A DNA stretch of 53,327 nt. Source: Clostridia bacterium. Its GTDB lineage: Bacteria; Bacillota; Clostridia; Oscillospirales; CAG-382. Positions within the stretch are counted from its first letter, which is position 1. Every line of letters begins with the position of its first letter. The position numbers and the translations under genes are program-made. Below, piece by piece: positions 247-4,796 of this stretch. The DNA lies in NCBI GenBank assembly GCA_017563195.1, contig JAFXDO010000037.1:1-53327 (forward strand), given 5' to 3'. Under the pieces are notes generated by a model. It worked only from the letters and a program-made list of their open reading frames with translations, ran no database searches and was not told the origin of the DNA.

Positions 247-1671
247 TTATAAATTGTAATACTTATCGAATTCCGCAGGATGAGGGATCTGCGAAAGCTG
301 ACGGCATTCCTCACGCTTATTCTTGATGAAGCTGTTGAGCAGCTCCTTCGGGAATACTCCGCCCTCGGTAAGGAACGCGTTGTCCTTTTCAAGTGCGTCA
401 AGTGCTTCCTCAAGCGACGCAGGAAGGTGATGAAGCTTTGCCTTTTCCTCGTCACTGAGGTGATAAAGATTGACGTCGTAGGGACCCCATCCATTTGCGT
501 GAGGATCGATCTTGTTCTTGACACCGTCGAGACCCGCCATAAGGATAGCTGCATAGCAGAAGTAGGGGTTGCAGGTCGCATCGGGGTTACGAAGCTCGAA
601 GCGACGCTTGTCAGGGCTCTTCGCATATGCGGGTATACGGATGACCGCACTTCTGTTAGAGGTTGCGTAACCGACGGTAACAGGCGCCTCAAATCCGGGA
701 ACAAGACGCTTGAAGGAATTGGTACTCGGGTTGGTTATAGCACAAAGAGCGGCGATATGCTTCAGCAATCCGCCCATAAAGTAATGTGCAGTTTCGCTGA
801 GGTGTGCGTATCCGTTATCATCGGAGAAGACAGGCTGACCGTCCTTAAGGAGAAGCATATGAACGTGCATACCGCTGCCCGCCTCACCATAGATGGGCTT
901 GGGCATAAATGTCGCGGTCTTGCCGTACTTGAGCGCGGTGTTATGGATGATATATTTGATCAACATGGTCGCGTCAGCCATAGTGGACATTTTTCCGAGC
1001 TGAGGCTCGATTTCAAACTGTCCCGACGCAGCAACCTCGGGGTGATGGTAGTTGATCTCGATGCCCGCATCCTTCATATGCATGCACATTTCGCTTCTGC
1101 ATTCATATGAAACGTCAAACGGCTTTGCGATATGGTAAGCCTTCTGCTTGGGAACAACGACACCTCTTCCCTCGCAGGAGCTGTTCCAGTATGACTGAAC
1201 AGCGTCGAGGTTAACGCCGATGCTGTTGGACTCGACCGACCAGCCTACGTTATCGAAAAGATAGAATTCAAACTCGGGAAGGATAAGCATCGTATCCGCG
1301 ATACCCGAATCCTGCATATACTTTTCTGCCGCAAGAACTATATTTCGCGGGTACTGAGCAAGCGGACGGTTTTCGGGCGAATCGATAATCATCGCATTAC
1401 CCGTCATTGTAAGCGTGGGAATCGAGCAGAAGGGGTCGATAAGCGCCGTGTCGGGATCGGGTATAAATACCATATCACTCTTTTCAACGACTGCATATCC
1501 ATAGTTTGAAGCATCAAAGCCGATACCGCTTTTCAAGGTATCCTCCGAAAAGTTTTCGGCAGGTATCGTCACGTGGCGATACTGACCGTTGATATCGACC
1601 ATCTTGAAGTCGACCATCTTGATTCCGTTATCTTTGATTATATTGAGTATATCCTGAACAGTTTTTGCCAT
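247..1671 (-). CDS. glnA: Glutamine synthetase type I
   Basis: FDASN, EFEFYLF, HHPEVA, TFMPKP..GSGMHVH, NRSAVIRIP, RFELRNPD motifs. Start moved to MAKT (1671) behind an AAGGAG RBS. Confidence 0.95.
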   Translation of the reverse strand: MAKTVQDILNIIKDNGIKMVDFKMVDINGQYRHVTIPAENFSEDTLKSGIGFDASNYGYAVVEKSDMVFIPDPDTALIDPFCSIPTLTMTGNAMIIDSPENRPLAQYPRNIVLAAEKYMQDSGIADTMLILPEFEFYLFDNVGWSVESNSIGVNLDAVQSYWNSSCEGRGVVVPKQKAYHIAKPFDVSYECRSEMCMHMKDAGIEINYHHPEVAASGQFEIEPQLGKMSTMADATMLIKYIIHNTALKYGKTATFMPKPIYGEAGSGMHVHMLLLKDGQPVFSDDNGYAHLSETAHYFMGGLLKHIAALCAITNPSTNSFKRLVPGFEAPVTVGYATSNRSAVIRIPAYAKSPDKRRFELRNPDATCNPYFCYAAILMAGLDGVKNKIDPHANGWGPYDVNLYHLSDEEKAKLHHLPASLEEALDALEKDNAFLTEGGVFPKELLNSFIKNKREECRQLSQIPHPAEFDKYYNL

Positions 1672-1696
1672 ATTTTTACTCCTTTGCGTTTTTTTC

Positions 1697-1725
1697 AGTA
1701 TATCATATTGAAAAATATCTGTCAA
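1697..1725 (-). promoter_or_regulatory. Sigma-A promoter of glnA
   Basis: TTGACA-17 bp-TATACT with TG extended -10 on the minus strand. Confidence 0.7.
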
Positions 1726-1761
1726 CAAACAACAAAAGAGGACCACTCAAATCCCTTCGAT

Positions 1762-1899
1762 TCAAAACAAAAAGCCGCACTTCGTACGGTTCTTTCTTTT
1801 GGAGCTGGTGGAGGGATTTTTTGTTTTAGAAAACTCCTCGTAAAACAATACGACCTGTGTTGCAAAATCAAGAGATTTATCGAGCAAAGGAATGTTCAT
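1762..1899 (-). pseudogene. Truncated four-helix-bundle (23S rRNA IVS-protein/Avd-like) gene fragment
   Basis: Hand translation MNIPLLDKSLDFATQVVLFYEEFSKTK, then runs into the duplicated tRNA 3' end. GAGGTG RBS. N-terminus resembles the L.DKS..FA.. start of four-helix-bundle proteins. Confidence 0.5.
1797..1819 (-). repeat. Duplicated tRNA-Thr 3' end (att-like direct repeat)
   Basis: ttttggagctggtggagggattt occurs at 1797-1819 and again at 2100-2122 (tRNA 3' end). Confidence 0.85.
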
Positions 1900-1940
1900 T
1901 CATCATCACCTCTGAATGCATTATACCATATTGTACGACT

Positions 1941-2102
1941 TAATTCAATGCTTTGCGAAGCAAAGCTACCTTTTCTTTTATCTCTTCTCTCTTATCTTTT
2001 CTCTGGAAACGACAATTTGAGAGAAGAGAGAAGAATGAAAAGAGAAAAGTGAAAAGAACAAAAAGAAACGACAATCTTCTGTCGAAAATTGTCGTTTCTT
2101 TT
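1941..2102 (-). mobile_element. 162-bp tRNA-3'-associated structured element, copy 1
   Basis: Starts right after the tRNA-Thr CCA. Ungapped match to 3521-3682 with 10 mismatches in 162 nt by manual alignment. Confidence 0.75.
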
Positions 2103-2177
2103 TGGAGCTGGTGGAGGGATTTGAACCCTCGGCCTATTGATTACGAATCAATTGCGCTACCCCTGCGCCACACCAGC
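2103..2177 (-). tRNA. tRNA-Thr(CGT)
   Basis: Cloverleaf GCTGGTG...CACCAGC-T-CCA, anticodon arm ATTGA-TTCGTAA-TCAAT, GGTTCAAATCC T-arm. Confidence 0.95.
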
Positions 2178-2207
2178 ATAGCACCCACATCTGCAGGCGC
2201 AAAATGG

Positions 2208-2236
2208 ATTATAACATTTTTTTGAAGGCTTGTCAA
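2208..2236 (-). promoter_or_regulatory. Consensus sigma-A promoter of tRNA-Thr
   Basis: TTGACA-17 bp-TATAAT with TG extension. Confidence 0.85.
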
Positions 2237-2281
2237 TACAATTTTCGGATTATTCGGGCTTTCATTCCCAAAAGCAGAGGA

Positions 2282-3301
2282 TCAGACGAAGTGCTTACAT
2301 CTTACCGAGAAAAAGTCCTTTACGTTCTTATTTTTCATAGGAGCAAGTACGATTATTCCTATCGCAAACACGACCGTCACGCCCAACCCGCCCTCGGGTC
2401 CGAAGGCGCCTCCGCTCCAAAGCGTCGAGCCGTTGTGAACAGTTGTAAACAGCGTTTCGGAAACGTCTCCGCCGCTGACGCTGCAGCCGAAAATATTACC
2501 CTGCGCGAAGTTCCAAACAGAATGTATCGCACATATCCCCCAGATGCTTCCTCTGCGAAGATAAAACAACGTAGCGAAAACGCCGAAGAGGAAGAGATTA
2601 AAAACTGCGAGCGGAGTTATGCCGGGATTTGCGAAGTGAAGCCAAGCAAAAACACCCGAATTAAGCAACAACGCTATCAATACACCTTGGTTCGCCGCAA
2701 CGGTCGTAAACAAAAAGCCTCGCAACATTATCTCCTCGCTTGCGCCCTGTATTATATATGCAAGGAAGAAGATCAAAATGCTTTCATACGACACGCCTGC
2801 ATTAAAGCCCCCGAAGGAAATATCTCCGCTCAAAATAGCACATCCGTACGCGAAGGAAAACATCAAGACACCGATGAGAAGCCCGACAAGGTACTCTCTA
2901 AGCATTCCCTTCTTAGCAAGCCCTACTGTGAAAAGGCGCCGCTTTTCGACTATAACGCAATATGCAACCACCGCAATGATGACAGCAACTGTCGAAAACA
3001 GGTTGACATAATTCACCCAAATCGGTGCATCTGCGTAAAATCTGGTAAGTGCCTCGTCGAGAGTCTTGGACATCGTTTCGTTATCGACGTCGCTTTGAGA
3101 CATAAGCGCGACCACCTCGGGATCTTCGGATACGGCGGCATAGGTCGGAATGGCTATGATAAAATTCGAACCGAGAGCACCAACCATATAGACGACGAGG
3201 CATATCAAAGCAATCAAAATCAGACTGCGTTTTTTTGTAGTCGCAGCCGTTTCATCTATTGCAGAATTTGTACGAAAGAAGCGAAGCATCAAGCAATTCA
3301 T
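2282..3301 (-). CDS. CPBP family (Abi/CAAX) intramembrane metalloprotease
   Basis: EEIMLRG, FAWLH and HSVWN motifs, multiple TM segments, GGAFGPEG tail. Confidence 0.9.
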   Translation of the reverse strand: MNCLMLRFFRTNSAIDETAATTKKRSLILIALICLVVYMVGALGSNFIIAIPTYAAVSEDPEVVALMSQSDVDNETMSKTLDEALTRFYADAPIWVNYVNLFSTVAVIIAVVAYCVIVEKRRLFTVGLAKKGMLREYLVGLLIGVLMFSFAYGCAILSGDISFGGFNAGVSYESILIFFLAYIIQGASEEIMLRGFLFTTVAANQGVLIALLLNSGVFAWLHFANPGITPLAVFNLFLFGVFATLFYLRRGSIWGICAIHSVWNFAQGNIFGCSVSGGDVSETLFTTVHNGSTLWSGGAFGPEGGLGVTVVFAIGIIVLAPMKNKNVKDFFSVRCKHFV

Positions 3302-3374
3302 CCTTTAGAGTTTCTTGGTATATTTTATCACAATATATTTTATTAGTCAACACGAACTCTTGATGAAAAAGTAC

Positions 3375-3403
3375 TTGCAAAATGAAAAACTATGTGATAT
3401 AAT
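3375..3403 (+). promoter_or_regulatory. Sigma-A promoter of tRNA-Leu
   Basis: TTGCAA-17 bp-TATAAT with TG extension. Confidence 0.8.
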
Positions 3404-3433
3404 ACACCTTGCGCGATGAAGGCGCAAGCAATT

Positions 3434-3520
3434 GCCGGAATGATGGAATTGGCAGACGTGCTGGACTCAAAATCCAGTGGTAGCGATACCGTGCGGGTTC
3501 GACCCCCGCTTCCGGCACCA
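3434..3520 (+). tRNA. tRNA-Leu(CAA)
   Basis: GCCGGAA...TTCCGGC-A-CCA acceptor, anticodon arm CTGGA-CTCAAAA-TCCAG, long variable arm, GGTTCGACCCC T-arm. Confidence 0.95.
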
Positions 3521-3682
3521 AAAAGAAACGACAATTTTCGACAGAAGATTGTCGTTTCTTTTTGTTCTTTTCACTTTTATCTTTTCGTTCTTCTCTTTTC
3601 TCACAAATTGTCGTTTCCAGAGAAAAGATAAGAGAGAAAAGTGAAGAGAAAAGGTAGCTTTGCTCCGCAAAGCGTTGAATTA
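3521..3682 (+). mobile_element. 162-bp tRNA-3'-associated structured element, copy 2
   Basis: Starts right after the tRNA-Leu CCA. Terminator hairpin, 7-nt periodic pyrimidine and purine arms, gctttgc-tcc-gcaaagc hairpin, terminal TTGAAT. Confidence 0.75.
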
Positions 3683-3724
3683 TATAATAATTTGTGATAC
3701 AATTAACATAAAGAGGTGATTTCT

Positions 3725-4210
3725 ATGGTAAATAGCAACTTCAAACATATTGACCCAGATGAATTTCATGACAAAGAACTTATTTTTCACGATTGCGTAG
3801 CGGATCATGTTTCATGCGTAGATGGTATACTCCGCTTCCATTTTCCGGACGGTTTTTGGGTTACTCCTAACCATAAAGAAAGTCACTGTGATAAAGTAGT
3901 ACGGACAAATGCATCAGCTGTTGTTTTTTCTCTCAAAAACATTAATAATGCCTATGTTCGTGTGTTCACTCGGAATATTTTCAAGAAAACATATACAGAT
4001 GTTTGGGAAATAAATAAGCTTGTTTCCACAATAAACAACGGAGAATGTTCGATAGAATTTATTTATCAGTACAGAACCTATTTCGAGCAGATGTGGCATT
4101 GTGTAATTCATTCCAAGAAAAAGCCGTATTATAGGGAATGCCAACTGCACTTGCCGGAAACAGAAGCAACTTTCTTTTGGAATGATCTTCGTCCGGATCG
4201 TGAATGGTAG
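3725..4210 (+). CDS. Hypothetical protein (AT-rich accessory gene)
   Basis: ORF with AGAGGTGA RBS before the ATG at 3725. No family recognised. Confidence 0.75.
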   Translation: MVNSNFKHIDPDEFHDKELIFHDCVADHVSCVDGILRFHFPDGFWVTPNHKESHCDKVVRTNASAVVFSLKNINNAYVRVFTRNIFKKTYTDVWEINKLVSTINNGECSIEFIYQYRTYFEQMWHCVIHSKKKPYYRECQLHLPETEATFFWNDLRPDREW

Positions 4211-4331
4211 TCTGCACTACTTTTAGGCTTTTTTACCTGCCCGACGGGGTTCGGAAAACCGCAAGTTTATGCGGAATGGGCGGTTATAAGTGATATATAG
4301 AAACTGTCAAATGATTTGGTAGGAGAGCGGT

Positions 4332-4796
4332 ATGTCAAGGTATGAAGAAATCGAGCTGACAAATATGTGTATGATTTGTGACGGCAAAGGAAACGTACTT
4401 GTCCAGAACAAGAAAAATCATCCAACCTGGTGCGGTTGGAATTTTCCGGGTGGGCACGTAGAAAGAGGGGAATTTGTCACACCGTCCGTAATCCGCGAAA
4501 TGAAAGAAGAAACCGGATTGACCATAGATAGTCCAAGGCTATGCGGAATTAAAGAGTTCCACAAATCAAAGGACGGAAAAAGATACATTGTTTTTTTGTA
4601 CGTTGCCAACCATTTCTCCGGTGAACTTAAATCATCCTCAGAGGGAGAAGTATTTTGGCACCCGTTATCTGAGCTGACGCACTCGGATAAGCTTATCGAC
4701 GGTTTTAGAGAAATGTTGCCCGTTTTTATTTCCGATGAAATTAACGAGGTTTACTACGAACGCTGTGAAGACGAACTGAAGACCATATTTTGCTGA
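4332..4796 (+). CDS. NUDIX hydrolase (MutT-like)
   Basis: Nudix box GGHVERGE...REMKEETG, AGGAG RBS. Confidence 0.92.
   Translation: MSRYEEIELTNMCMICDGKGNVLVQNKKNHPTWCGWNFPGGHVERGEFVTPSVIREMKEETGLTIDSPRLCGIKEFHKSKDGKRYIVFLYVANHFSGELKSSSEGEVFWHPLSELTHSDKLIDGFREMLPVFISDEINEVYYERCEDELKTIFC

Follow-up and report, generated by a model that had tools for sequence, protein, structure and literature searches.

The window analyzed here (the whole stretch of 53,327 nt, contig JAFXDO010000037.1 of the Clostridia bacterium assembly GCA_017563195.1, Oscillospirales, CAG-382; contig C52 below) carries two similar promoters, each separated from an upstream tRNA gene by a copy of a structured repeat that we call E1. 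The source genome (G000), a metagenome-assembled genome (MAG), comprises 76 contigs totaling 1.71 Mb and is 73% complete. The two anchoring genes, tRNA-Thr(cgt) (2103..2177, minus strand) and tRNA-Leu(caa) (3434..3520, plus strand; Rfam tRNA model, 50.6 bits), were identified by ARAGORN and Rfam and point apart, with a gene for a CPBP/Rce1-like membrane protease between them. E1, ~155 nt in length, begins at the first base past the CCA of both tRNAs, occupying 3521..3674 (plus) behind tRNA-Leu and 1949..2102 (minus) behind tRNA-Thr. We refer to the plus-strand promoter behind tRNA-Leu(caa) as copy A and to the minus-strand promoter behind tRNA-Thr(cgt) as copy B. The E1 sequences of the two copies share 94% identity over 162 nt, and a repeat search of the window recovers them as inverted arms of 209 nt (1920-2128 and 3495-3703; 87% complementary). 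Within positions 1600-4400, an Rfam search at E <= 1 returned only the two tRNAs above threshold; sub-threshold matches of plant and animal miRNA and leader models to the low-complexity arms of E1 were treated as noise.

Both copies present TTGAAT, 17 nt ending in TG-n, TAYAAT, a further 6–8 nt, the Shine–Dalgarno (SD) sequence AGAGGTGAT, and an ATG. In copy A (promoter 3675..3703, plus), TTGAAT lies at 3675-3680 and the spacer at 3681-3697, with TG at 3695-3696 (TG-a) and TACAAT at 3698-3703; the leader segment (3705..3727) contains AGAGGTGAT at 3712-3720 and, at 3725, the start codon of a 161-aa open reading frame (ORF), ORF161 (3725..4210, plus). In copy B (promoter and leader 1897..1948, minus), TTGAAT at 1948-1943 is followed by TG-g, TATAAT at 1925-1920, AGAGGTGAT at 1913-1905, and an ATG at 1899-1897 that opens a truncated gene for a four-helix-bundle (4HB) protein. 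A preliminary description of the window had placed these elements at the same positions, and its coordinates hold for both copies. Compared with the sigma-70/sigma-A pattern, TTGAAT agrees with TTGACA at 4/6 positions in both copies, the spacers fall within 17 ± 1 bp, TG stands at −15/−14, and both −10 boxes are close to TATAAT. The two sites are predicted to be ordinary extended −10 promoters of the housekeeping sigma factor with a strong SD leader, and both are presumably active. Stronger matches to the consensus occur nearby: a perfect TTGACA-17-TATAAT (12/12, with TG) upstream of tRNA-Thr at 2236-2208 (minus), and a near-perfect TTGACA-17-TATACT (11/12) upstream of a glutamine synthetase gene at 1725-1697 (minus).

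The window contains 37 TTGAAT sites, counting both strands, and TGNTANNNT follows at 17-bp spacing only at these two; the background frequency of this motif is ~0.001 per position. A chance origin of the shared geometry is excluded. Promoter-like matches in a generic sense are frequent in the region, with a consensus scan returning 10 sites against 5.5 ± 2.6 in shuffled sequence, or about twice the shuffled rate, as would be expected if the arrangement were an accident of AT-rich intergenic DNA and neither site a promoter. However, in more than 60 copies, representing many species, the hexamers, the TG, and the spacer length are conserved against a variable spacer sequence, and we give this reading almost no credence.

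In a two-row alignment, identity between copies A and B is high as far as TTGAATTA, falls within the spacer, returns at TG-n-TA-AAT, and returns again at AGAGGTGAT. The preliminary description had taken the fall in identity, 2 nt after TTGAAT, as the edge of the element; E1 would then be a platform ending just past an outward-facing −35 box, to which each cargo gene brings its own −10 box, ribosome-binding site, and ORF in the manner of insertion-sequence hybrid promoters. We consider it probable instead that both sites derive from the ordinary promoter of a repeated cassette, located at tRNA tails and encoding a 4HB protein, of which copy B would be a standard but truncated representative and copy A a recombinant.

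A conserved promoter upstream of a 4HB gene

G000 contains four copies of E1, two of them outside the window. The copy on contig C18 lies behind tRNA-Ser(gga) and continues with the spacer of copy A (differing by one G/A change at its last base), TG-g-TATAAT, and AGAGGTGAT, followed by a full 115-aa ORF whose first 27 codons correspond to the copy B ORF. This copy therefore bridges the two in the window, combining the A-type spacer and the B-type TATAAT with an intact version of the gene of copy B. Its product matches PF05635 (23S_rRNA_IVP, 1.7e-23) and TIGR02436 (1.7e-27), and sequence comparison with the PDB yields a single relative, 2rld (E = 1.1e-23). On contig C57 a fourth copy, located at the contig end, is preserved as far as TTGAATTAT and then gives way to unrelated DNA with no −10 box at 17 bp. 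Two further PF05635 genes occur in G000, at C41:1-640 (L176; loci examined here carry handles beginning with L) and at a contig end on C33 (L177). One of them represents a different subfamily; tandem hairpin arrays precede it, and no promoter is obvious there. A contig end interrupts the other, whose stop codon shares bases with the ATG of an additional, uncharacterized cargo gene.

E1 was matched in 22 of 61 genomes searched, including G000, and in 17 of 36 other members of the genus when G000 is excluded. Thirteen of 21 examined copies begin right at a tRNA end (Leu, Thr, Ser, Trp, Met, Arg, Gln, or Pro), with 123-138 nt between the tRNA end and the small hairpin that closes the repeat; three sit 286-411 nt behind a tRNA with other modules between, and in five either usable upstream sequence or a same-strand tRNA is lacking. 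Filled and empty orthologous sites both occur: E1 is present at one of 14 orthologous tRNA-Thr(cgt) sites beside the CPBP gene, that of the window, and at three of 19 tRNA-Leu(caa) sites (the window, L072, and L073).

A search of GTDB species genomes with the 4HB protein identified 315 relatives, the best 80 of which (86-98% amino acid identity) were examined; the source MAGs are labelled Oscillospiraceae, Acutalibacteraceae, Eubacteriales, Clostridia, and others. In 62 of the 80, the 4HB ORF starts 190-230 nt past a same-strand tRNA or tmRNA gene (27 kinds; four tmRNAs). A regular expression for −35 box, 16-18 nt, −10 box, and SD sequence, run upstream of all 80 genes, recognized the full promoter and SD in 69. 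Among these 69, 66 have a 17-bp spacer and three an 18-bp spacer, TG precedes the −10 box in 61, the −10 box is TATAAT in 57, and the −35 box is TTGAAT or TTGATT in 63. In a 62-row alignment (A1), the TTGA of the −35 box, the TG, the −10 box, and GAGGTG either do not vary or are conserved in at least 90% of rows, and the spacer occurs in several unrelated alleles. Fixed promoter columns around a free spacer are the pattern expected from purifying selection on a working promoter.

Both spacers of the window recur within this set. That of copy A precedes 4HB genes in L080-L084, L087, L089, L097, and L104, and that of copy B in L094, L099, L101, L102, and L106. The window copies are thus best read as two spacer alleles of one promoter family, and their likeness ends 2 nt past the −35 box because the unconstrained 17-nt spacer starts there, not because the element does. 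The fall in identity that had been described at this point is real; the element nevertheless continues through the promoter into the 4HB gene. Nor is the downstream DNA unrelated, as had been stated, since both spacers, both −10 boxes, and both ribosome-binding sites are matched exactly or almost exactly elsewhere in the cassette family.

These comparisons bear directly on the platform model. Of the 80 loci, 69 have a recognizable whole promoter before one and the same 4HB gene, the −35, TG, −10, and SD columns of alignment A1 are conserved over 62 copies, and the allele in copy B is a standard one. Additionally, truncated E1 copies (L004, L029 with two copies, L033, L047, and L049) break at scattered points and have no −10 box at 17 bp, and cargo genes are normally joined at the 4HB stop codon. 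A survey of other copies had been proposed as the check on the model, with constant geometry and varying downstream genes as the expected outcome: the geometry is indeed kept (17 bp in 66/69) and the cargo varies, but the gene directly behind the promoter is normally the same 4HB gene.

Copy B, a truncated cassette

In copy B, the 4HB reading frame (1820..1899, minus) retains homology to the intact C18 gene over ~27 codons and then runs into a perfect 23-nt repeat of the tRNA-Thr 3′ end (1797..1819, minus; 100% identical to 2100-2122). The tRNA-Thr repeats flank an insert of 303 bp whose right edge is 1797-1819. Beyond the repeat lie a terminator (1789-1775, minus) and a short motif, orthologous to the DNA that directly follows tRNA-Thr in L053, the empty tRNA-Thr site of the closest relative; the terminator in the window appears to be the native one of tRNA-Thr, displaced by the insert. 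The repeat-flanked insert and the empty site in L053 together identify copy B as a 303-bp cassette remnant at the tRNA-Thr tail, in which the 4HB gene would have been deleted from about codon 27 to the duplicated tRNA-Thr 3′ end. On this comparison, copy B is a standard E1-4HB promoter with a truncated standard gene and is not a hybrid, which contradicts the proposed donor design of E1.

Copy A, a chimeric promoter upstream of ORF161

Copy A lacks a 4HB gene, and its promoter leads directly into ORF161. The predicted ORF161 protein matched no Pfam or NCBIfam family and is sporadically distributed, with ORF161 present in 16 of 401 genomes of the order (G000 counted) and 11 of 177 genera. The closest outside match, 93% identical, comes from another family. 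In five of 15 other loci, the ORF161 homolog lies 231-304 nt past a tRNA without E1 or a 4HB gene, and these E1-less homologs are preceded by different terminator and hairpin arrays. Inspected by eye, the upstream regions in L161-L164 each present a −35 box, 17 nt, TG, and −10 box of their own, which in L162 read TTGAAA-17-TACAAT. With a complete promoter of this kind, an ORF161 parent would have needed no donated −35 box.

The 53 nt of copy A from the −35 box to the ATG were divided into three segments, and mismatches were counted against 61 E1-4HB rows and against the upstream regions of ORF161 homologs. The first segment (3675-3687; −35 box and 7 nt) has no mismatch in 11 of the 12 best E1-4HB rows listed and at most one in 13 of 61, but 3-6 mismatches in 13 positions to every ORF161-homolog upstream region (4-5/13 for L162 and L163). 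The central segment (3688-3704; TG and −10 box) matches both groups without mismatch, in L104 and L097 among the E1-4HB loci and in L162 and L163 among the ORF161 homologs. The last segment (3705-3727; leader, SD, and ATG) has at least 5 mismatches in 23 positions to all 61 E1-4HB rows, but only two to L162 and L163 and three to L161. Copy A is accordingly best described as a chimera by descent, with the −35 box and 7 nt of E1, 17 nt common to both sources, and a leader, ribosome-binding site, and ORF of the ORF161 type. In the simplest history, recombination or deletion would have joined an E1 promoter to a complete ORF161 promoter in the same register, at a point inside the 17 nt that both parents have in common around the −10 box; a join inside this shared sequence keeps the 17-bp spacing automatically.

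The same 17 nt can be read another way. If the promoter of copy A were wholly the cassette's own, ORF161 and its leader would be an E1-family variant, L162 and L163 would have lost E1, and two promoters need never have recombined. The identity of the central segment in L104, L097, L162, and L163 fits this alternative, as do the position of ORF161 homologs 231-304 nt behind tRNAs in 5/15 loci and the occurrence of one homolog behind a 4HB gene: in L127, a homolog (53% identity over 161 aa) directly follows the 4HB gene of an E1 unit. However, the 13 positions that make up the −35 box and the first 7 nt of the spacer include 4-5 mismatches to E1 in L162 and L163, the arrays that precede them are not E1, and none of the 61 E1-4HB leaders comes nearer than 5/23 mismatches to that of copy A. 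We regard this alternative as unlikely.

Copy A is also the locus at which the platform model comes closest to the data. The three-segment comparison bears out a −35 box from the module and the remainder from the cargo in this copy, where the segment from −10 box to ATG matches the region upstream of E1-less ORF161 homologs, and in L035, too, an E1 promoter leads directly into an ORF other than 4HB. The same division of parts fails in copy B and as a general rule, and the ORF161 parent appears to have had its own −35 box at 17 bp. The chimera in copy A would thus be the result of one event between two complete promoters and not of the element's design. The model of E1 as a −35 donor already appears largely refuted by these comparisons, and we hold it to be highly improbable.

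Several features surround copy A. No repeat of the tRNA-Leu 3′ end was found downstream of it in the window (at most 5 mismatches in 20 nt). The block between tRNA-Leu(caa) and a convergent gene for a CCA-adding enzyme also contains a NUDIX hydrolase gene (4332..4796, plus; Pfam PF00293, 3.3e-18), and no NUDIX gene was found beside the ORF161 homologs; in L063 the cca gene lies ~190 nt past tRNA-Leu(caa). The 23 nt past the ORF161 stop codon (4215-4237) recur in L163 and, in diverged form, in L164, at both of which this motif sits upstream of the terminator that precedes the ORF161 homolog. DNA-like contigs from run X1 continue past position 4238 with the sequence that follows the motif in L163. 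These occurrences hint that 4215-4237 may be a right-end motif of an ORF161 cassette.

Structure of the E1 leader

Repeat detection, a terminator scan, RNA folding, and pair counts resolve E1 into three parts, given here with their plus-strand positions in copy A. A long bidirectional terminator hairpin, T1 (3520-3564), is followed by a hairpin of ~33 bp formed by a pyrimidine arm (3565-3602) and a purine arm (3619-3652), and then by a small GC hairpin (3657-3673). By a periodicity test, both arms are arrays of 7-nt units. The 165-nt RNA folds at −66.2 kcal/mol (z = −9.3 relative to shuffles); across 62 copies, 91.3% of positions in the three hairpins are paired, as compared with 56-62% in slid controls, and 17 of 56 pairs change on both sides. 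E1 would thus supply a terminator for the tRNA, an arm hairpin of inverted 7-nt repeats, and a small hairpin ahead of the promoter.

The loop of the arm hairpin contains a copy of the 3′ half of T1 (3607-3617), to which the 5′ half of T1 is also complementary (3525-3535 with 3607-3617 in the window; columns 12-22 with 114-125 of alignment A1). This second pairing is retained in 97.4% of alignment cells, against 22-56% in slid controls, and in six of its 11 pairs both partners vary. Since the set of variants is small and its members are related, these changes amount to a handful of independent events. The covariation could equally be explained by homogenization of direct repeats. A simple attenuator was considered for the alternative pairing and rejected, the second partner being located downstream, past the U-run of the terminator.

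Cargo genes, unit ends, and possible mobility

In 63 of the 80 loci, the next ORF takes its start within the last 4 nt of the 4HB gene (an ATGA overlap), so that cargo normally joins after the 4HB stop and not at the promoter. The next ORFs form 29 clusters, a few non-overlapping members of which may be spurious or resident genes; a GreA gene among them is probably resident. Pfam assigns the cargo to four GNAT clusters, T5orf172 with or without HTH, an AAA kinase-like protein, DUF6678, YjbR, and a Big_14 lipoprotein, and many cargo genes have no family. With 62 of 80 loci anchored to a tRNA or tmRNA and 29 clusters of next ORFs, the constant, tRNA-anchored module with exchangeable genes that had been proposed does exist.

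Units with the commonest cargo are 87-98% identical at the nucleotide level over ~1,060-1,100 nt at different tRNAs in different species, and they end in a conserved right-end motif abutting local terminators. These terminators look native, two tRNA-Ser(gct) sites having one in common. The right-end motif is ~60 nt long, begins with a T-loop-like GAGTTCGAATTC, and closes units with different cargo; it was found at 35 places in the stored loci (e.g., L080 4808, L083 4583, L144 5031 and 5433), and in L037 it is fused straight to the pyrimidine arm of E1. With a tolerance of 4 mismatches per 21 nt, no right-end motif was found in the window. In L120, L144, and L154 the unit is followed by 20 nt that repeat the tRNA 3′ end perfectly; apart from copy B, no such repeat was found in the other loci. 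The type-1 units examined have no tRNA repeat and abut the native terminator. The complete cassette consists of the ~155-nt E1 leader, the promoter, a 4HB gene (PF05635/TIGR02436) of 115-116 aa, and usually a cargo gene attached through the ATGA overlap, with the right-end motif set against the tRNA's native terminator in many units.

The units measure 0.3-1.6 kb and contain only the 4HB gene and small cargo genes. A plasmid collection gave no match to the unit, and a phage collection gave one weak match of 98 nt. Nested or tandem accretion of units at tRNA tails was observed. Filled and empty orthologous sites, near-identical units at many tRNAs, and the sporadic distribution of cargo all point to mobility. 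It is possible, though we advance this only tentatively, that the E1-4HB-cargo-right-end units are a new class of integrase-less mobile cassettes homing to the junction between the CCA end and the terminator of tRNA and tmRNA genes, in which the 4HB protein and the heptad-repeat arms would act as a mobility or maintenance factor and cargo would be exchanged at the ATGA. If so, rRNA intervening sequences and tRNA-tail cassettes would be one kind of element colonizing stable-RNA genes.

Two other kinds of element were observed at tRNA tails. A second tRNA-tail module occurs in the genus (L031, L047, L053, L054, L059, L063, L068, L069, and L144), with a stub in the window at 1747-1758 (minus). 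It follows the tRNA and its terminator, comprises a structured stretch of ~100-250 nt, and terminates in a second copy of the tRNA 3′ end that extends to CCA; its 5′ arm complements the T-loop and 3′ T-stem of its own tRNA and covaries with tRNA identity (Ala, Leu, Thr, Ser, and Met). No Rfam family matched it at eight relatives' loci. Arrays of short hairpins resembling Gut-1 (sub-threshold, 46 vs. 50 bits) lie in L054 at 913-1082 and 3277-3442, and similar arrays recur downstream of many units (L083, L092, and L098) and upstream of the ORF161 homologs in L161-L164.

Evidence bearing on the interpretation

The probable reading remains that of an ordinary promoter belonging to a repeated tRNA-tail 4HB cassette, with copy B standard and truncated and copy A recombinant. 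The analysis directly shows the sequence relationships, the pattern of conservation, the tRNA anchoring, and the coupling of cargo to the 4HB gene; promoter activity, the histories of recombination and deletion in the two copies, and the mobility of the cassette are inferred from them.

A number of points weigh against this reading. First, 18 of the 80 loci do not have a tRNA at 190-230 nt: in six it is farther away, in two nearer, in six there is no same-strand upstream tRNA in the locus, and in four the upstream sequence is short. Eleven of the 80 are missed by the regular expression; by eye, with no formal score, these are mostly SD or hexamer variants. Most of the genomes are MAGs, in which repeats often fall at contig ends. 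Additionally, the ORF161 promoter could itself stem from the E1 promoter, which would make the distinction between two parents a matter of degree. Public RNA runs contain 0.07-0.27 of the sampled words, as contigs only, which cannot show transcription starts. Contigs 90-99% alike to parts of ORF161 (window 3721-4237) were found in three metatranscriptomes from two studies; these reveal neither start nor strand, and DNA carry-over is possible. Finally, the mobility of the units is read from their distribution. No recombinase, transposase, or reverse transcriptase was linked to any unit examined, and the single Phage_integrase match in G000 is on contig C37, with none in the window or beside any copy.

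Comparison with known systems

The closest known relatives of the cassette are the ORF-bearing intervening sequences (IVS) of 23S rRNA genes, which encode the S23p/23S_rRNA_IVP 4HB protein and have examples in Coxiella and Leptospira. Such an IVS is removed from the precursor RNA through RNase III cleavage. Like them, the cassette encodes a PF05635 4HB protein (present in the window only as the 27-codon stub of copy B), forms a small, discrete insert tied to a stable-RNA gene, and carries long arms of inverted short repeats beside the gene. It differs in lying behind tRNA and tmRNA genes instead of within a 23S rRNA helix, in having both arms upstream of the ORF instead of bracketing it as a stem, and in possessing its own promoter and SD sequence, a 4HB gene coupled to variable cargo, and a right-end motif.

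The four-helix-bundle family reportedly also includes Avd, an accessory protein of diversity-generating retroelements (DGRs); PF05635 is mentioned in PMC10053308. The likeness to a DGR ends with the shared protein family, however, as no reverse transcriptase was found in the genome and no pair of template and variable repeats was seen. Both a DGR and an IS200/IS605 element were considered and set aside as readings of the cassette, neither RVT_1 nor the Y1 transposase (Y1_Tnp) having been found in G000; in a genome 73% complete, absence is not proof.

Outward-facing −35 boxes of insertion sequences can create hybrid promoters. Among publications on this subject is one on ISPpu9 (PMC12288879). 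Copy A resembles these in taking its −35 box from a repeat and sharing the sequence from the −10 box onward with the upstream region of another gene. However, in most copies homology of the cassette runs past the −10 box and SD sequence into the 4HB gene, the join in copy A falls inside 17 nt shared by two complete promoters, copy B is no hybrid, and the cassette units examined have no transposase. Integron gene-cassette arrays are built around the Pc promoter, attI and attC sites, and the integrase IntI. Here too a constant promoter module precedes interchangeable small accessory genes, but no IntI lies beside any cassette unit, the anchor is a tRNA 3′ end, the cargo overlaps a conserved leader gene by ATGA, and the unit ends carry their own conserved motif (no search for attC was made). 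A likeness to integrons and insertion-sequence hybrid promoters had been suggested for the locus; both models fail their defining tests.

Tycheposons are described as tRNA-targeting integrative islands (10.1101/2020.12.28.424599). The cassettes resemble such islands in their location at tRNA and tmRNA 3′ ends, in the partial tRNA 3′ repeats at the far side of some (copy B, L120, L144, and L154), and in their nested or tandem accretion. They differ in their size of ~0.3-1.6 kb and absence of an integrase, in the occurrence of one near-identical unit at more than 20 tRNA identities, and in the many cassettes that lie without tRNA duplication between the CCA end and the native terminator.

Significance

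The idea of E1 as a −35 donor does not generalize: the promoter is ordinary, and the cassette it belongs to is a variant of the IVS-type 4HB cassettes. Full-text literature searches, with matches judged by title and abstract and supplements outside their scope, found no published description of a tRNA-tail 4HB cassette. The cassette is compact and very widespread: in many gut Oscillospirales species, no fewer than 27 kinds of tRNA and tmRNA gene are followed by a gene for a 4HB protein of 86-98% amino acid identity. Its built-in parts include a terminator, a hairpin serving as insulator, and a strong promoter, and its 4HB gene is translationally coupled to more than 20 kinds of accessory gene. 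The function of the 4HB family has been an old question since the description of rRNA intervening sequences, as has the route by which inserts reach stable-RNA genes; the filled and empty sites, defined ends, and deletion derivatives described here make both questions testable. As judged from these genomes, tRNA tails would be a hot spot at which gut Clostridia express small accessory genes from a portable promoter.

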